This document shows positions 2,032 through 8,868 of a stretch of DNA of 8,868 nucleotides, piece by piece (positions within the stretch are counted from its first letter, which is position 1; the number at the start of each line of letters is the position of its first letter). A model generated the notes under the pieces. It did no database searches. It worked only from the letters and a program-made list of their open reading frames with translations, and was not told the DNA's origin. This DNA comes from a virus (Duplodnaviria > Heunggongvirae > Uroviricota > Caudoviricetes): the IMG/VR virus record IMGVR_UViG_3300000293_000037; one strand, 5' to 3'. The position numbers and the translations under genes are program-made.

Positions 2032-2769
2032 TCAGCGACCAATCACCACAACCTGACCACCGTCCCCTTCGTCTGCCNNNNNNNNNNNNNNNNNNNNNNN
2101 NNNNNNNNNNNNNNNNNNNNNNNNNNNNNNNNNNNNNNNNNNNNNNNNNNNNNNNNNNNNNNNNNNNNNNNNNNNNNNNNGAGAAACCACACGTGATCCC
2201 ACGCGCATTTCACCGTACAGAACAGGCAGAACATTGCCCTGGGCAACCATGTTATCCAGTGACGAGAAATACGTGTTCTGCTTACCGTTATCCGTGCTGG
2301 TCGTTGTTGCGGTACTGGCTTTCGGTGCCAGCATCTGCGCCACACCGCCAAGGATCATACTGGCCCCCGCAGCATACATGCCCGATAAAGCCGCAGCTCC
2401 CAGCCAGCCTGCAGGGTTCCACCACGCCACTGCAATCAGCGCCGCACCCAGCACCGCCTGAAACACACCGCCACTTTTTGCTCCCGCAAGACGCGGAACG
2501 ATGTGGATCACGGCACCATTTTTCAGCGGCTCATTAAGACGGGCTGATAATTCGTTTTCGCCTGCATCACGCCCGGCAATGCGCACCTGATACCAGCCAT
2601 CGCTCAGTTTCTGACGAAACGCCGGGATCTGCATGGCCAGCGCCCGGATGGCTTCGGCCCCTGTTTTCACACGAAGGTCGATGCGGCGGCCAAATCGTTG
2701 CAAATCCCCGTAAAGGCAGATGCGTGCCATGCCCGGTGATGCCAGAGGGAGTGTGTGCGTCGCTGCCAT
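2032..2769 (-). CDS. I: Tail tip assembly protein I, interrupted by a 103-nt run of N
   Basis: ORF track 2032..2769 (-). N-terminus MAATHTLPLASPGMARICLYGDLQRFGRRIDLRV and C-terminus ADEGDGGQVVVIGR match lambda gpI as recalled. ATG at 2769-2767, stop TGA at 2034-2032. The frame is continuous across the N-run only if the gap is really 103 nt. Confidence 0.85.
   Translation of the reverse strand: MAATHTLPLASPGMARICLYGDLQRFGRRIDLRVKTGAEAIRALAMQIPAFRQKLSDGWYQVRIAGRDAGENELSARLNEPLKNGAVIHIVPRLAGAKSGGVFQAVLGAALIAVAWWNPAGWLGAAALSGMYAAGASMILGGVAQMLAPKASTATTTSTDNGKQNTYFSSLDNMVAQGNVLPVLYGEMRVGSRVVSXXXXXXXXXXXXXXXXXXXXXXXXXXXXXXXXXXXADEGDGGQVVVIGR
2078..2180. other. Run of 103 ambiguous bases (assembly gap or masked sequence) inside gene I
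   Basis: Literal n characters at 2078-2180. Confidence 0.99.
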
Positions 2770-3410
2770 TTGTCGGTATACCTCTCTCGTTTGCTCAGTT
2801 GTTCAGGAATATGGTGCAGCAGCTCGCCGTCGCCGCAGTAAATAGCGGCATGATTCGGCACCGATGAACCAAAACAGCACAGCAGCACATCGCCCGGCAG
2901 CGCCGCTGACAACGGCACCTGATACAGCCCCGTTGCCTCCATATTATCCAGATAGAGATTCTGACCGTGACGCCACCAGTCATCCTCACGATGAAAATCA
3001 GGCATCTCAATTCCCGCCAGATGGTAAGCATCCCGGAACAGCGTGTAACAGTCCGTCACCCCGTGCTCAAAGCGCCGCCCGGTAAGATGCGGCACACAGC
3101 GGAACTTGTGAATCGCCCCCCGGCAGACCAGCCACCACGGCAAATCACTCTGCACCTGCAGCCGCCGGTCAGCCTCACTCAGCCAGGGCAGAGCACCGGG
3201 GTGACTGTGGACCAGCGCCACAATCTCACCCTGCATTTCTGCCCGCAGCCAGTCCTCCGGAGCCATCCGGAAATACGCCTCCGGCTCACCGGAGATATTC
3301 ACGCAGGGAAAATATCTTTCCCCTTCCGGCGTTCTCACCACGAAGCCGCACGACTCCGCTGGCGCACATCGCCGGGCGTGCGCCAGAATCGCTGATTCGG
3401 TCTGTGTCAT
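2667..3410 (-). CDS. K: Tail tip assembly protein K, full-length 247-aa form with a JAB/MPN (JAMM) domain followed by an NlpC/P60-type cysteine peptidase domain
   Basis: ORF track 2667..3410 (-). JAMM motif HSHPGALPWLSEAD (HxH-x7-S-x2-D) at residues 69-82. Candidate NlpC/P60 residues: Cys in DCYTLF, His in NHAAIY and ELLHHIP. ATG at 3410 lies 5 nt after the L stop. The 3' end overlaps I by 103 nt. Confidence 0.9.
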   Translation of the reverse strand: MTQTESAILAHARRCAPAESCGFVVRTPEGERYFPCVNISGEPEAYFRMAPEDWLRAEMQGEIVALVHSHPGALPWLSEADRRLQVQSDLPWWLVCRGAIHKFRCVPHLTGRRFEHGVTDCYTLFRDAYHLAGIEMPDFHREDDWWRHGQNLYLDNMEATGLYQVPLSAALPGDVLLCCFGSSVPNHAAIYCGDGELLHHIPEQLSKRERYTDKWQRRTHSLWHHRAWHASAFTGICNDLAAASTFV

Positions 3411-3415
3411 GGGAT

Positions 3416-4114
3416 TTACTGCGAAAGTTTGTTAATGGAAAGGAAGCCGCCAAAGTTGCCGACGTTATTGCGAAACTTACAGCCACTCAGGCATTTGCTG
3501 CATTTATCCTTCGTGATATCGGACGTCGGCTGATCATATTCATCCGCGACCGCCGGACCGTGATAACTGCACTCATCACCGCGATAGGTCCAGGTGCAGG
3601 TATTAGCCAGCATGATGCGGCCCGGAAAAACAGCGCCGTCCGTTTCCGTCGGCGTGGACAGTACAAAGGAGGCACTGACCGCGCTCAGTTCGCTGCACTG
3701 CTCAATGCGCCAGCGGCTGATTACCTCCTGCTCCGGATCGGCGTCACTGTTTCCGTTGACGAAGTTCACCGCATCCAGAAAACGGGCGTAAACCTTACGC
3801 CTGACCACCGTTCCGCCGACCAGACTCTGCAGGTCTTCCGCCATCCCGGTGACCATGCCGTGCAGATTAGAGACTTTCAGCGTTGGCCTTGCACTGGCAC
3901 CTTTGCCGTTCATCTCAAATCCACTCCCCTGAATGGGATAGGCCTGATACTGCCGCCCCTGCCAGGTGACTGGTTCACCTTTTTCGTTCTGCTCATTACA
4001 GAAGAAATAACGATCTCCGCCGACCTCTGTCAGATCAATTTCCCAGAGCACGATCAGCGCGGATTGCTCCGTTTTAGTGCACTCATTGAGTGTTTCCTGC
4101 TGTATATCCTGCAT
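3416..4114 (-). CDS. L: Minor tail protein L (tail tip complex), 232 aa
   Basis: ORF track 3416..4114 (-). MQDIQQETLNECTKTEQSALIVLWEIDLTEVGGDRYFFCNEQNEKGEPVTWQGRQYQ... is near-identical to lambda gpL as recalled and the same length. Start ATG overlaps the M stop in an ATGA arrangement (4111-4114). Confidence 0.95.
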   Translation of the reverse strand: MQDIQQETLNECTKTEQSALIVLWEIDLTEVGGDRYFFCNEQNEKGEPVTWQGRQYQAYPIQGSGFEMNGKGASARPTLKVSNLHGMVTGMAEDLQSLVGGTVVRRKVYARFLDAVNFVNGNSDADPEQEVISRWRIEQCSELSAVSASFVLSTPTETDGAVFPGRIMLANTCTWTYRGDECSYHGPAVADEYDQPTSDITKDKCSKCLSGCKFRNNVGNFGGFLSINKLSQ

Positions 4115-4455
4115 CAGTGAGTGACCTCTTCAAAGGTACAGTTAAAATCGGTATACATGGCATTATCCGAAATGCTCCACTCCCTGCAGACAACCCGGAC
4201 AGTCCTGTTGTGTTTTGGCGGACGCCACAAAAAAGCACGAATCCCGGCATGACGGGATAAAAAACTGTCCAGCGCGGCACGGGAATATTCATCTGTGACA
4301 CGAAATACCGGTTTAAACGTTTTCAGATCCGCATTCAGACCACCAGCCCGTCGCTGTTCATATCCGTCACCAAACTTTACCGTAATAACTGATGGCTTTC
4401 GTGTCGTCTCCATCCCCTCACGGGGGATCCAGTTAAAAACTTCAGGCTCAGGCAC
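4114..4455 (-). CDS. M: Minor tail protein M; start uncertain (GTG 4455 preferred, ATG 4470 or TTG 4500 possible)
   Basis: ORF track 4114..4500 (-) begins at a TTG. The FNW...KFGDGYEQRRAGGLNADLKT core aligns with lambda gpM (FRW...RFGDGYSQ). GTG at 4455 has a GGAGGA Shine-Dalgarno 7 nt upstream and overlaps the H stop (GTGCCTGA). Lambda M is 109 aa. Confidence 0.85.
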   Translation of the reverse strand: MPEPEVFNWIPREGMETTRKPSVITVKFGDGYEQRRAGGLNADLKTFKPVFRVTDEYSRAALDSFLSRHAGIRAFLWRPPKHNRTVRVVCREWSISDNAMYTDFNCTFEEVTH

Positions 4456-7400
4456 TGTACAATCCTCCATCCCGACGCGATGACTGCATAATTGACACAA
4501 CCCTGCTGTCGATCAGATCCACCAGTCCCCTGGCTGAGCGCGCATCTATCTCGCCATTGCTCCCTTGATTCTGAATGCTGATGTGATACACGGGAGAATA
4601 AACAAACCCCCCGCCACTATTCACATTGCCAATGGCTCTGACCCCAAGAGAGCCGTCCGCTGCCCGTGTCAGTGGCATGATAGCTTCAGGCCCGGCCTCG
4701 CCCATCAGCCCGGCACCTTTCGCAAAAGCAAAATACGTCGGTGTATCCACAATAGTGTTACTGTAAGCACTCAGATTTGCCGATGTGTAAACACCACCTT
4801 TTGCGTTTGCCACCGCCCCCGAAATCCATCCGCCGACCGTACCAAGCCACCCTCCGGCACCGGAGAGTGACTTCAGTCCGTTAACAATGGCCGCATTCAT
4901 CAGAATTTTTGAAACTTCCTGGAGAATTGAACTCCCCCAGTTTCTCCAGTCCACAACATTTCCGGCCAGTGCATCGGAAATATTTGATACCAGTCCGTCC
5001 ATAGTGGAAACGACAGCATCTGCCGCCTGCGAAGCATAATCGGTGGCACTGTCTGCCCAGTTGGTCAGCCCCTCCTGGAGTCCTGCATTCCAGTTATTAC
5101 GTAAAGCATCGGCCTTTGCATAATAATTCTGCTGATCGCTGAGACGCTCTTCCAGATATTTTTTATTCAGTTCTTTCTCCTGTTTCCACAGGGCTTCTTC
5201 AATTTCTCCGGCCTGATACTGTCTCAGCAGCTCGTTATTTTTCTGCTCAAACTCATGCCGGATACTCCACATTTCCTGGAGTCGTTCACGCATCCGTGAG
5301 CCTTCACCATATCCCAGTAACTGCGCGTCGTTAGACGCCCGGGTACTGGCATTACTGTCCGCCAGGCTGCTTTCATACGCAGCAAGCTGCTCACGAATCT
5401 TTTTCTGGTCGATGAGTGCTGCATTCTGCAAAAGCGTTTTTTTCTGCGCTTCTGACAGGGTTGATAATTCGCCCTGACTGACCTGATATTTCATCTTAGC
5501 CAGTTCAGTATTCTGCCCTGCCAGTGCTATTTGTTCTTTTTGCTGTTTAATCAGCCGTTTATAAATATCTTCTGTTTTTTCCGCTTCGGTCTTTTTATGC
5601 GCTTTGGGTTTATTTGCCTGGTTATTTCGCCAGGCATCCAGTGAGTTATTGATATAATTCTGTCTGGCTGTCTGATACGCCTCTCCCACAAAGCCGAGAT
5701 CATCCGCAGCATAACCCAAGCGGGCACGCTCACGGGCTTCCCCCTTCAGGCGGGACAGAGCCAGTTCGCGCTCGCTGTTATTCAGTGCAGTCTGCTGTTT
5801 ATCATCCAGGGTTGCCTGTGGTAGCCGTAACGGTACATTCACCAGCCCCTGTCGCTGCTGAAGTAATTCATTACCGAGCCCGAGAAGGCGATTAAACTCG
5901 GTATGCTGCCCATTCATGATCAACAGGGACTGATACGCTTTGTTTTGTTCCGCGGCCTGTTGACGGATCAACGCCACCCGTCGCTCCTCCAGCCCGGCAA
6001 GTACATCCTGAATGGATTGCGCTTTGCCCTGCATTTGTGTGAGACGGGACTGTTCAACTGCCAGTTGATTTGTTGCTTCTGCAAGCCCTTCTGTGACAGT
6101 TTTTACCGACGTCATGTGGTTAATCATAAAACCGTTATCGGTTGTCCAGCCCGGGTTTGCCAGCACATACTGATAGCCAGCAATTTTTTCCTGTAAGGAT
6201 TTAATCTTACTTTTCTGCTCGTCAATTAACCTGTTTTGCTCATCAAGTGCCTGCCGCGTCTTTTCCTCATTATCTGACGCTTCAGGAAGCGACATTGCCG
6301 ACGTTTTCTGGCGAATTTCGTCGATTGTTGCGGCATACTGGCGTGCAGATTCTCTGGCCTGCTCCTGATTCTGATACATCGTGTACCAGGCCGTCGCCCC
6401 CAGCATGACGAGTCCCGGCACACCACCAACCAACCCCAGCGCACCACTTAACAGACGACTCCCCACTGACGTGACAGTATTCAGCGTTGTCTGTGCCGCT
6501 GTTCTGGCCGCAATATTACGGGTAAGTGACGCCTGAGCAGCTGTCAGCTTCGCTTCTGCTGCGGCCTGCCTTTCGGTACCGCGAGCAGCAACAACCGCCT
6601 GTTGCGCACGATAAACCGCCGCACGCGCCCTGGCGGTTGCTATCTGTGTCCCCCGAAGTTGCGCTTCAGCAAGAGCCACTTCGTTTCTGGCTGCAGTAAT
6701 TAATCCGGCAGTTGCAGATCCAGCAGAAGACGCCATATTGCCAAAATATCGGGCTACCCCGACGGCAACCAGAGCACCGGCAGCGGTTGCCACGGTGTCA
6801 ATATTGCCTGCAAGACCATTCAGCACCCCGGAGAGCGTCTTCGTCACTCCGCTTGCCTCGTTCGCACCACCAACCCAAGCCATAAAGGCGTTTTCAACTT
6901 TGGTTGCAGAGGATGAAACCGTATCAGGCATTGCTGCATATTCATCACGCAACGCCCCAAGCTGACTAATCAGTGCAGGAACAACCTTATCGGCGGTTAG
7001 TTTTCCGTTATCCGCCATGGCCTTCAGATCCTTACGGGCAACGCCCATTCCCGCAGCCAGCGCACGAATAACACGATCACCGCTCTCATTCACCGAGTTA
7101 AACTCTTCACCGCGCAGCACTCCCTGCGCCAGTGCCTGACTGAACTGCGTGATCACCGAACTGGCTTCTGCTGTACTGGCACCGGATAATTTCAGGCCCG
7201 TGGAGATCGCCTCGGTGACTTTCAGTACCTCCTCAGAACTGTAACCATACTCCCGCATGGAAGCTGCAGAACGGGCAAAAAGGCTGGCGTTATCAGAAAA
7301 CGCCGTCCCCGTTCTCTGGCTGATCGCCATTAATTCACGTTGTGATACCTGAAAATCATCACTGGACTGTGAGGCCTGCTTCAGACGGGCATTTACTGAA

Positions 7401-7681
7401 TTCCACTCATCGGCGAGAGAAATAAGATGACCGGTAGCAAAAGCCCCGGCAAATGCCCCCGCCATATTCAGTGCCGAAGATTTAGCTGTATTTATCTGAT
7501 CCGTCACTTCTGCCAGTGCACGCCGCATTTCACGGGATGCAGCAGCGGACTGCCGGCCTCCGTTCTGCATGGTACGGTAGTAATCCTGCCCCATACGCGA
7601 AGCCCGGGAGATCTCTGACTGGAATGACCGGGAATTTGCCGAGATTTTAATAATCAGTTCACGTAATGTCGCCACACTCAT
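4448..7681 (-). CDS. H: Tail tape measure protein, 1077 aa
   Basis: ORF track 4448..7681 (-). Long Ala/Gln/Glu/Lys-rich, largely coiled-coil-like protein. The C-terminal region (GGVYTSANLSAYSNTIVDTPTYFAFAKGAGLMGEAGPEAIMPLTRAADGSLGVRA) resembles the lambda gpH C-terminal domain as recalled. Sits immediately downstream of the G/G-T chaperone pair and upstream of M-L-K-I-J. Confidence 0.93.
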   Translation of the reverse strand: MSVATLRELIIKISANSRSFQSEISRASRMGQDYYRTMQNGGRQSAAASREMRRALAEVTDQINTAKSSALNMAGAFAGAFATGHLISLADEWNSVNARLKQASQSSDDFQVSQRELMAISQRTGTAFSDNASLFARSAASMREYGYSSEEVLKVTEAISTGLKLSGASTAEASSVITQFSQALAQGVLRGEEFNSVNESGDRVIRALAAGMGVARKDLKAMADNGKLTADKVVPALISQLGALRDEYAAMPDTVSSSATKVENAFMAWVGGANEASGVTKTLSGVLNGLAGNIDTVATAAGALVAVGVARYFGNMASSAGSATAGLITAARNEVALAEAQLRGTQIATARARAAVYRAQQAVVAARGTERQAAAEAKLTAAQASLTRNIAARTAAQTTLNTVTSVGSRLLSGALGLVGGVPGLVMLGATAWYTMYQNQEQARESARQYAATIDEIRQKTSAMSLPEASDNEEKTRQALDEQNRLIDEQKSKIKSLQEKIAGYQYVLANPGWTTDNGFMINHMTSVKTVTEGLAEATNQLAVEQSRLTQMQGKAQSIQDVLAGLEERRVALIRQQAAEQNKAYQSLLIMNGQHTEFNRLLGLGNELLQQRQGLVNVPLRLPQATLDDKQQTALNNSERELALSRLKGEARERARLGYAADDLGFVGEAYQTARQNYINNSLDAWRNNQANKPKAHKKTEAEKTEDIYKRLIKQQKEQIALAGQNTELAKMKYQVSQGELSTLSEAQKKTLLQNAALIDQKKIREQLAAYESSLADSNASTRASNDAQLLGYGEGSRMRERLQEMWSIRHEFEQKNNELLRQYQAGEIEEALWKQEKELNKKYLEERLSDQQNYYAKADALRNNWNAGLQEGLTNWADSATDYASQAADAVVSTMDGLVSNISDALAGNVVDWRNWGSSILQEVSKILMNAAIVNGLKSLSGAGGWLGTVGGWISGAVANAKGGVYTSANLSAYSNTIVDTPTYFAFAKGAGLMGEAGPEAIMPLTRAADGSLGVRAIGNVNSGGGFVYSPVYHISIQNQGSNGEIDARSARGLVDLIDSRVVSIMQSSRRDGGLYSA

Positions 7682-7691
7682 TCTCCGGACG

Positions 7692-7713
7692 AAAAAAAAC
7701 CGCCGAAGCGGTT
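7692..7713 (-). terminator. Intergenic hairpin plus U-tract between T and H: minus-strand AACCGC-TTCG-GCGGTT followed by T8
   Basis: Plus strand 7692-7713 is A8-CCGCCGAAGCGGTT. On the minus strand this is a 6-bp stem with a UUCG tetraloop followed by eight U. It sits in the 40-nt spacer between the T stop (7722) and the H ATG (7681). Function is inference. Confidence 0.3.
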
Positions 7714-7721
7714 ATGTTGAC

Positions 7722-8395
7722 TCACTGAGACACTATTAAAAGCGCTTTTTCCAGTCCGGCAAATGGATCTGATACGCCTTCTGTCTGCTCCTTCTCCCAC
7801 TGAAGAAGCGCATCATTCAGTGGCACTCTGACCCCCTGCGCACCGTAAACAGCCGAAACAATCTGGGCAGCCCGGATATCAGCCCGTTCGTCCCCCAGCG
7901 GGCTGAACCTGTCAAATTCTGCCCACATCATGATTTCTGATGCGGACATTTCCCGGCGTAACTCTGACAATGTGCGCCCCATCCTGAGCGCCAGCATCAT
8001 CAGAAAACGCATCCCCGGAAGCGCTACTTTTTTTTAACCTCGCCGGCATCACTGATCAGTTCCAGAGACTGCCGAAGAAGCCGCGCATGCACCGGGCCAT
8101 ACACGGCAATCACCTGTTCACGATCATCCTCTGAAAATACAGGTTGCAGTCCGGTATCACACAGAACATCAATGAACAGTTCAACATCTGCCTCCAGATT
8201 TCGGCGGGCGCGCTCCGCAACGGATAACGGTGTCTCATTATCTTTTGCTTTAACGATCTCCTGCCAGCGCAACCAGGCTTCTGCAGAAGGTTCCCGTAAT
8301 ACAACCGTTGCCCCTTCCCATTCAGGCACATCAACAGTTTTATGGCGAAACCCCGACATCGTTGCCAGTGCCAGATTGCGGATATTTTTAGTCAT
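7722..8395 (-). CDS. G-T: Tail assembly chaperone G-T fusion made by programmed -1 ribosomal frameshift (G frame 8395..8027, T frame 8033..7722)
   Basis: The G frame ends ...GAG GTT AAA AAA AAG TAG. The -1 frame is open from the A-run (AAA AAA GTA GCG CTT CCG GGG ATG CGT TTT...) and continues as the 96-aa T-like ORF 7722..8012. Position directly upstream of the tape measure gene matches the conserved G/GT arrangement of long-tailed phages. Confidence 0.75.
8024..8395 (-). CDS. G: Tail assembly chaperone G (zero-frame product); start ATG 8395 preferred over ATG 8410
   Basis: ORF track 8024..8410 (-). ATG at 8395 is preceded by GAGGA at 8-nt spacing (AGGATAGATGTGATG); the ATG at 8410 has no Shine-Dalgarno. 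Ends in the slippery A AAA AAG followed by TAG. The call rests on position and architecture, not on recognised sequence similarity to lambda G. Confidence 0.8.
   Translation of the reverse strand: MTKNIRNLALATMSGFRHKTVDVPEWEGATVVLREPSAEAWLRWQEIVKAKDNETPLSVAERARRNLEADVELFIDVLCDTGLQPVFSEDDREQVIAVYGPVHARLLRQSLELISDAGEVKKK
8027..8033 (-). promoter_or_regulatory. Slippery heptamer A AAA AAG for the -1 frameshift between G and T
   Basis: Plus-strand CTTTTTT at 8027-8033 is minus-strand A AAA AAG in the G frame, two codons before the G stop. Part of a T8 run at 8028-8035. Confidence 0.7.
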
Positions 8396-8494
8396 CACAT
8401 CTATCCTCATTAACTGACGGTAACAGTGCAGGAAGTGGAGGTCACCTTGTTAACAGGGCTTGCTGAATCAGAAATCTCGCAGGTATGGGCAGCT

Positions 8495-8868
8495 CTATCT
8501 GCACTGCTCATTAATATACTTCTGGGTTCCTTCCAGTTGTTTTTGCATAGTGATCAGCCTCTCTCTGAGGGTGAAATAATCCCGTTCAGCGGTGTCTGCC
8601 AGTCGGGGGCTGGTTGCATTATCCACGCCGGAGGCGGTGGTGGCTTCACGCACTGACTGACAGACTGCTTTGATGTGCAACCGACGACGACCAGCGGCAA
8701 CATCAGCGCGCAGAGTTTCATTTTCAGCTTTCGCATTGGCTAATTCTCTCGAGTACTTTGCATCGAGTGCAGCAACATCACGCTGATGCTGCTGCATGTC
8801 AGCGATGGTGGCGATCGCCTGCTTCAGCTCACTGACTTTTTTATCACGCTGTTCTTTGTAGGCGATGG
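8495..8868 (-). CDS. Rz: Rz i-spanin (inner-membrane spanin), C-terminal part; 5' end lies beyond the window end
   Basis: ORF track 8495..8797 (-): MQQHQRDVAALDAKYSRELANAKAENETLRADVAAGRRRLHIKAVCQSVREATTASGVDNATSPRLADTAERDYFTLRERLITMQKQLEGTQKYINEQCR matches the lambda Rz C-terminus as recalled. The frame stays open upstream of 8797 to the window edge (IAYKEQRDKKVSELKQAIATIAD-MQQ...), so the true start is outside the window. Confidence 0.9.
   Translation of the reverse strand, partial: IAYKEQRDKKVSELKQAIATIADMQQHQRDVAALDAKYSRELANAKAENETLRADVAAGRRRLHIKAVCQSVREATTASGVDNATSPRLADTAERDYFTLRERLITMQKQLEGTQKYINEQCR
8554..8736 (-). CDS. Rz1: Rz1 o-spanin (outer-membrane lipoprotein), 60 aa, nested in the +1 frame of Rz
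   Basis: ORF track 8554..8736 (-): MRKLKMKLCALMLPLVVVGCTSKQSVSQCVKPPPPPAWIMQPAPDWQTPLNGIISPSERG. Has an LVVVGC lipobox and a proline-rich segment; near-identical to lambda Rz1 as recalled and wholly contained inside Rz. Confidence 0.88.
   Translation of the reverse strand: MRKLKMKLCALMLPLVVVGCTSKQSVSQCVKPPPPPAWIMQPAPDWQTPLNGIISPSERG

Follow-up and report, generated by a model that had tools for sequence, protein, structure and literature searches.

The stretch of phage DNA analysed here (8,868 nt, hereafter the window) carries, on the minus strand, a portion of the tail operon of a lambdoid prophage (Table 1). Assigned by open reading frame and Pfam matches, its genes run in the order G, T (in a −1 frameshift), tape measure protein (TMP), M, L, K, I and J. 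After the TMP gene come M, L and K, homologous to their lambda counterparts, and then an I-like reading frame and the start of J; for these last two, the names are those given in annotated records that match. The TMP gene thus sits after the G/G-T chaperone pair and before the M-L-K-I-J tip genes, as expected of an HK97-type tape measure gene. In contrast to the HK97-type system, the window has no gp15 moron between T and the TMP gene. On the scale of the operon, affinities change from gene to gene: G and T are 63% identical to their HK97 counterparts and give no hit to lambda, L and K are 93–94% identical to lambda L and K compared with 34–35% to HK97, and M is about 40% identical to lambda and HK97 alike.

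Table 1. Features of the tail locus and of its tape measure gene; residue numbers count from the ATG at 7681.
Feature	Position (nt)	Strand	Residues	Remarks
Rz-type spanin gene, 3′ part	8495..8868	−		runs off the window end; stop codon 8495-8497; joined to the tube-gene remnant at ~8481-8486
Tube (major tail) gene remnant	8410..8486	−		last 77 nt including stop codon; delimited by the match limit of intact relatives
Tail assembly chaperone, G-like	8024..8395	−		Phage_TAC_1 (Pfam); slippery heptamer A AAA AAG at 8027-8033
T-like part of G-T frameshift product	7722..8012	−		Phage_tail_T (Pfam); −1 frame relative to G
Tape measure (TMP) gene	4448..7681	−	1-1077	from ATG 7681; reading frame and Pfam
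N-terminal Ala/Ser/Gly-rich part	6362..7681	−	1-440	GC 0.551, GC2 0.534; contains TMP_3
Central K/E/Q/N/L-rich part	5057..6361	−	441-875	overlaps Phage_HK97_TLTM
C-terminal Gly/Ala/Ser/Val-rich part	4448..5056	−	876-1077	Tape_meas_lam_C spans its start
TMP_3 (PF20155)	6860-7429	−	85-274	E=8e-57, above curated cut-off
Phage_HK97_TLTM (PF06120)	5618-6493	−	397-688	E=1e-93, above curated cut-off
Tape_meas_lam_C (PF09718)	4880-5095	−	863-934	E=9e-14, above curated cut-off
Weaker hydrophobic segment	6740-6808	−	292-314	Kyte-Doolittle peak 1.38
Strongest hydrophobic segment	6398..6454	−	410-428	LLSGALGLVGGVPGLVMLG; Kyte-Doolittle peak 1.81; just N-terminal to the charged centre
Hypervariable patch	6092..6241	−	~481-530	from identity profile against HK544 and close relatives
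Block closest to HK544	5492..6091	−	531-730	92-100% nucleotide identity to phage HK544

Read from the ATG, the TMP frame encodes 1077 residues, compared with 853 for lambda gpH; both lengths are as an earlier note on this DNA had given them. Translation likely starts at the GTG at 7675, giving 1075 residues: the start codon of the HK97 TMP gene aligns with this GTG, and relatives in RefSeq are annotated at 1075 residues. The protein contains three Pfam families and two hydrophobic segments, the latter located by Kyte-Doolittle hydropathy in a 19-residue window. Equivalent hydrophobic segments occur in the tape measure proteins of HK97 and HK544 and in lambda gpH (residues 107–138). The C terminus ends in RRDGGLYSA, much as gpH ends in MRDGGLFS.

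The earlier note had described GC-rich, Ala-rich ends enclosing a markedly AT-richer centre, placed at about residues 450–900 (nucleotides 5000–6350), and had read this centre as an inserted or exchanged module. We divided the protein near these limits, at residues 441 and 875, and the shift in composition is there. GC is 0.490 (49.0%) in the centre compared with 0.551 (55.1%) in the N-terminal and 0.535 (53.5%) in the C-terminal part, the coding strand is 32% A compared with 22% in each end, and A/T runs of at least 4 nt number 12.3 per kb compared with 6.1 and 6.6, respectively. In sliding profiles of the plus strand, GC is lower and AT skew strongly negative over about 5000–6350. The protein changes in step: Lys, Glu and Gln together make up 28.0% of the centre compared with 12.9% of the N-terminal and 6.5% of the C-terminal end, and Ala makes up 19.3% and 13.4% of the two ends compared with 11.3% of the centre. 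'Markedly', by contrast, overstates the size of the drop, which is a modest 5.5 GC points between ends and centre (z=2.9 against free codon shuffling), with total GC heterogeneity over 50-codon bins at p=0.03.

The drop is located entirely at one codon position. At the second position, GC falls to 0.359 in the centre from 0.534 and 0.515 in the N- and C-terminal parts (chi-square p=6e-8), whereas the first position (0.605 compared with 0.611 and 0.574) does not differ and the third (0.508 compared with 0.507 and 0.515; p=1.0) is flat. Along the whole gene, heterogeneity is likewise significant at position 2 (p=0.0002) and not at position 1 (p=0.24) or 3 (p=0.15); two 50-codon windows at residues 676–750 have a GC3 of 0.36, which is inside this sampling noise (p=0.15) and leaves room for a local effect. 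A shuffle of synonymous codons that leaves the protein unchanged predicts a drop of 0.053±0.010 compared with the observed 0.055 (z=0.21), and windowed GC follows the GC expected from amino-acid content at average codon usage with r=0.88. Because the fall is at second positions only and the synonymous shuffle reproduces it, the dip is a consequence of the amino-acid sequence. Nothing points to a centre that evolved under other mutational pressures or another codon usage. What is useful here is a point of method: before a drop in GC within a coding gene is taken as a sign of horizontal transfer, it should be resolved by codon position.

These results bear directly on the idea that the centre came from an AT-richer source, by horizontal acquisition or exchange, and entered a tape measure gene of the lambda kind. 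The 5.5-point deficit is what such a module might show, but with GC1 and GC3 flat the whole drop is explained by amino-acid content, and since that content accounts for the composition, a foreign origin is not needed. A uniform GC profile had been named as evidence against the module; the computed GC profile is not uniform, but its synonymous sites are flat, and the deviant synonymous sites or codon usage of a compositional island are not found across the gene. The lambda tape measure protein has a centre of the same composition. Low GC2 and richness in Lys, Glu and Gln in the centre are common to HK97 gp16, HK544 gp14 and lambda gpH; in gpH, residues 300–600 have a GC2 of 0.37–0.42 and a combined Lys, Glu and Gln fraction of up to 0.43.

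A second possibility is that the centre hides another gene, nested or antisense, or else a regulatory element, and that this constrains its composition. Four mechanically called reading frames do overlap the centre (5903-6196 on the plus strand; 5224-5424, 5551-5733 and 6226-6447 on the minus strand), but none of the four matches Pfam, promoter- and terminator-like sites are no commoner than in shuffled sequence, and the composition is fully accounted for by the amino acids that the main frame encodes. We regard this as the least probable of the explanations considered, its chance close to nil.

If the centre were an addition, close relatives should exist without it. Instead, the protein aligns from end to end with known tape measure proteins. 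HK97 gp16 matches residues 3–1077 over its own residues 1–1084 by BLASTP (55% identity, E=0, collinear end to end) and contains the identical three Pfam families (TMP_3, Phage_HK97_TLTM and Tape_meas_lam_C). HK544 gp14 is collinear over its full length at 78% protein identity. At 1089 and 1085 residues, respectively, the two are slightly longer than the 1075–1077 residues here; both lie at the same place after the G/G-T chaperone genes and have the same composition profile as the window TMP, and they differ from it in a C-terminal third that is only about 50% identical. Much closer relatives exist among other phages and prophages. Phage vB_EcoS-689R5 is collinear with the TMP gene at 99.3% nucleotide identity, ten phage records cover at least 80% of the gene at 96.5–99.3%, and a potB-adjacent prophage of DETEC-P169 is 100% identical over it; vB_EcoS-689R5, phi467, Evi and the DETEC-P169 prophage match the whole gene at 96.5–100%. 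The earlier note had itself named a full-length collinear alignment with a known tape measure protein as evidence against an inserted centre, and 689R5, HK544 and HK97 each provide one.

The same layout extends far beyond these close relatives. In protein searches, 26,005 representative clusters match at E≤0.001, and 5939 clusters among the candidates scored match at E≤1e-10; the best 120 of these 5939 are 1042–1081 residues long and have the same three domains, and clusters of tape measure relatives from E. coli prophages and phages hold thousands of member sequences. Full-length collinear relatives can be followed through 27–35% identity, and at 27–28%, the lowest reached, the segment is still present, with lengths of about 1055–1154 residues. 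Searched by themselves, the central 435 residues have matches that cover 80% or more of their length in 147 phage records (identity about 45–99%), among them phages of Escherichia, Klebsiella and Enterobacter, Stx-converting phages, and HK97, HK75 and mEp234. Among the relatives examined, none lacks the segment with junctions at its edges, as an island would require. To judge from these alignments, the centre is an old, integral part of the HK97-type tape measure family. With the whole 8.9-kb window as query, 5205 of the 5426 complete E. coli genomes had matching relatives. The window TMP is of an already known, ordinary kind; its gene belongs to one of the commonest tape measure families of Escherichia prophages, and the find in itself matters little.

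Lambda gpH, against which the centre had first been judged, is on sequence grounds the wrong comparator. Its Pfam families are TMP_2 (PF06791) and Tape_meas_lam_C, and TMP_2 is absent from the window TMP. The two proteins are homologous through the C-terminal Tape_meas_lam_C region and not through the N-terminal half that holds TMP_2 in gpH. By BLASTP, only residues 755–1076 align, with gpH 510–849 at 26% identity; phmmer against PDB sequences aligns residues 642–1076 with 392–849 of chain 8iyk_H; and hhalign of five HK97-type against three lambda-type tape measure proteins gives a sole significant alignment, of residues 701–1073 with lambda 443–848 (E=6.6e-43). Homology is thus limited to the last ~375–400 residues. 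Over the N-terminal ~700 residues neither BLASTP nor hhalign detects any, though the profiles are shallow and a very remote relationship is possible. The AT-rich centre itself, in its last ~175 residues, is homologous to the charged centre of lambda gpH. The window TMP is 222–224 residues longer than gpH, and because the 224-residue excess lies in the non-homologous N-terminal two-thirds, it is not an insertion into a shared frame; without detectable gpH homology over those 700 residues, there is no lambda-like frame for a module to have entered. The protein is, by its alignments and domains, an HK97-type tape measure and not a lambda gpH with an insert. What gpH, HK97, HK544 and the window TMP do have in common is one plan, consisting of one or more hydrophobic segments, a highly charged stretch and a Gly-rich C-terminal region, and presumably the role of ruler.

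Recombination has nevertheless left its mark inside the gene, at other places than the composition would suggest. Codon-level identity profiles against HK544 change in steps: nucleotide identity is about 70% over residues 1–80, 70–95% (mostly 82–95%, with a dip to 70–75% at about residues 271–300) over residues 80–470, 17–55% over residues 481–530 and 92–100% over residues 531–730, a block whose flanks stand at 82–95% on one side (residues 301–470) and fall past residue ~740 on the other, to about 65% and lower. Relatives that are 94% identical or more likewise differ chiefly in the patch at residues 481–530. From its profile, we take residues 531–730 to be a genuine recombination block. Against HK97, protein identity is only 17–40% over residues ~300–700, a strongly diverged centre, and 70–100% over residues 1–300 and 700–740. 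In the representative search, for which the best stretch of each match alone is reported, that stretch often ends at residues ~450–500 or ~760–780 or starts at ~680–735, which suggests deep modularity and is indicative rather than firm.

The divergence of the centre from HK97 between better conserved flanks and the many partial matches that end at ~450–500 or begin at ~680–735 also speak for an acquired module. But the points of divergence and the junctions fall at residues ~80, 300, 475–530 and 700–740 and the edges of the compositional segment at 441 and 875. The expectation that breakpoints would be found in the gene was therefore right as to their existence, with junctions at residues ~80, 475–530 and 740, and wrong as to their place, as none coincides with 441 or 875. 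With flat GC3, a shuffle that leaves nothing over (z=0.21) and a centre present in all relatives examined, the claim of an inserted or exchanged module is not supported; we consider the foreign-module reading already largely refuted and its probability very small. Overall, the earlier note's observation is confirmed in part, whereas most of its interpretation lacks support.

The junctions themselves are ordinary lambdoid phage mosaicism, a concept that a review credits to the comparison of the HK97 and HK022 genomes (Juhala et al. 2000). More specifically, a recent intragenic homologous recombination may have exchanged the block at residues 531–730 independently of composition, with a possible effect on a specificity function in DNA injection. 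The stepwise identity to HK544 and the variability of the adjoining patch even among relatives at least 94% identical argue for such an exchange, as does literature that ties the HK97 tape measure protein to inner-membrane and periplasmic factors of the host. Such mosaicism is common among lambdoid phages, however, and the exchange leaves the composition shift unexplained. We think it somewhat more probable than its opposite that this event took place. That the block and the patch together form a recently exchanged specificity cassette is a more ambitious and, in our view, unlikely proposition; if it were true, the cassette might determine, at DNA injection, the phage's dependence on particular host factors of the inner membrane or periplasm, or its dependence on or evasion of particular superinfection-exclusion proteins.

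The centre had also been described as repetitive and coiled-coil-like. Repetition is not borne out: Tandem Repeats Finder finds no tandem repeats in the centre (its sole array in the gene, 23 nt at 7437-7459, is in the N-terminal part), and self-BLASTP of the protein returns the identity match only. The coiled coil fares somewhat better. A single-sequence AF2 model of low confidence (mean pLDDT 43) is helical over residues 3–961, and so well beyond the centre, with a break at ~509–521, inside the hypervariable patch, and a non-helical stretch of the last ~115 residues. In a crude Fourier test of hydropathy, by contrast, the 3.5–3.67-residue periodicity expected of heptads is at the level of shuffled sequence over residues 441–875 (z=0.4); the same periodicity is present in the N-terminal (z=7.6) and C-terminal (z=4.2) parts. 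The centre may therefore adopt a coiled coil or some other extended helical arrangement.

Taken together, we favour, at a probability of roughly 0.9, the reading that this is an ordinary HK97-type tape measure protein whose compositional layout reflects functional architecture and not a patchwork of DNA. What the analysis establishes directly are the accounting of the composition, the membership in the family and the conservation of the layout across relatives. The architecture itself is as follows. An N-terminal Ala/Gly/Ser-rich domain carries the hydrophobic segments and precedes a long hydrophilic shaft in which Lys, Glu, Gln, Asn and Leu abound; a hydrophilic, helix-prone centre would suit a soluble, extended shaft. 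The Gly/Ala/Ser/Val-rich C-terminal part would dock in the tail tip. The hydrophobic segments at residues 292–314 and 410–428 and the Gly-rich C terminus are in keeping with the roles proposed at the membrane and in the tip. The residues of the shaft use codons with A or T in second position (AAR, GAR, CAR, AAY and YTN); such codons lower GC and raise A on the coding strand, and third positions keep the composition of the rest of the gene. Inside the tube, the protein would extend and set tail length at ~0.15 nm per residue.

This picture draws on work on other phages. Tape measure proteins are described as spanning the lumen of the tail tube and setting its length at ~0.145–0.15 nm per residue (PMC5099701). 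In lambda, a trimer of gpH is reported to lie inside 32 gpV rings, with gpI holding the C-terminal helix of gpH in the tip (PMC10721106). For HK97, injection of the genome is stated to need the inner-membrane protein PtsG and the periplasmic chaperone FkpA, a requirement tied to the tape measure protein (cited in PMC5099701).

The window copy of the operon is incomplete. Reading frames and Pfam reveal no tube gene within the window, as the earlier note had observed; only the last 77 nt of one remain, at the position given in Table 1. Upstream of the chaperone gene, intact relatives carry a major tail gene with an Ig domain, neck and head genes of HK97 type and the terminase genes, and their match to the window ends at 8486; the Rz-type segment matches from 8481 on. 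The loci of 689R5, phi467, Evi and DETEC-P169 keep the major tail and head genes where the window has the Rz gene, and in DETEC-P169 an Ig-domain major tail gene occupies the very position of the remnant. A search of 5426 complete E. coli genomes finds the junction of Rz and tube remnant in none of them, so it is either a deletion peculiar to this copy or a product of assembly. The tube gene is missing because of this deletion or misjoin at 8481–8486, which is unconnected with the tape measure. Between Rz and the chaperone gene, the copy lacks the genes for tube, head and packaging, and it therefore cannot build a tail by itself.

The proposal that the longer protein implies a longer tail than lambda's must accordingly be divided. 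The window copy is defective (or its contig misjoined), so the inference holds for intact relatives only; for the tube-less copy itself it does not stand. In the literature searched, we found no measured tail length for the HK97 family. Applied to intact relatives, the ruler rule gives ~161 nm for 1075 residues compared with ~128 nm for 853 residues. It is a fair inference that their tails would be ~1.26 times as long as that of lambda, with ~40 rings in place of 32 if the rise per ring is similar.

The tail genes of the window include an HK97-like and a lambda-like module. L and K are 93–94% identical to their lambda counterparts; the tail assembly chaperone gene (G), the T-like ORF (the frameshift part of G-T) and the tape measure gene (4448–7681, minus strand) are of the HK97 type; and M reaches no more than about 40% identity with the M of either phage. 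Because of this distribution, the HK97-like and lambda-like tail modules, as judged from sequence identity, meet in or beside M, or at the C-terminus of the tape measure protein. On the scale of the operon, the module junction lies within 2667–4500.

A second junction joins the Rz spanin gene directly to a remnant of the major tail (tube) gene. Around 8–9 kb carrying the terminase, portal, capsid, neck and tube genes of intact relatives is absent from the window at this point, or about 8.2 kb when measured on the DETEC-P169 prophage, an intact E. coli relative whose tape measure gene is identical to that of the window. The matching segments on the Rz side and the tube side share a 6-nt overlap. 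Since none of the 5426 complete E. coli genomes searched contains this junction, it is either a deletion private to this copy or a misjoin in the assembly. Elsewhere, an apparent GC dip in the profile (1951–2400) is caused by a run of N. At that place the window exceeds the DETEC-P169 prophage, to which it is otherwise 100% identical, by 90 nt; the run therefore does not simply stand in for sequence of equal length.

Features of the tail gene region
Feature	Position	Strand	Remark
Run of 103 N	2078–2180		Inside the I-like tail assembly gene
Hypervariable patch (short)	6092–6241		Residues ~481–530 of the tape measure protein
Terminator-like hairpin, AACCGCTTCGGCGGTT, then T8	7698–7713	−	Within the 40 nt that separate T from the start of the tape measure gene
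Slippery heptamer, A AAA AAG	8027–8033	−	Immediately 5′ of the chaperone gene stop codon
Tube gene remnant, last 77 nt	joined to Rz at ~8481–8486		Directly after Rz; region 8410–8500
Rz stop codon	8495–8497

Upstream of the tape measure gene, the presence of a slippery heptamer together with a T-like ORF (7722–8012) that reads in the −1 frame indicates that the conserved programmed G/G-T frameshift appears intact. A terminator annotated in HK97 and HK544 occupies the position equivalent to the hairpin, in their case after the gp15 moron; compared with these phages, the lineage of the window keeps the hairpin without the moron gene. The tape measure ORF opens mechanically at an ATG (7681), but a GTG at 7675 aligns with the start codon of the HK97 and HK544 tape measure genes, and the RefSeq relatives are annotated at 1075 amino acids, so that the true product probably has this length.

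Within the tape measure protein, the hypervariable patch is predicted by an AF2 model to be only partly helical. Its DNA is unalignable with that of HK544, and substitutions and differences in length are chiefly concentrated here even between relatives that share 94% identity or more.
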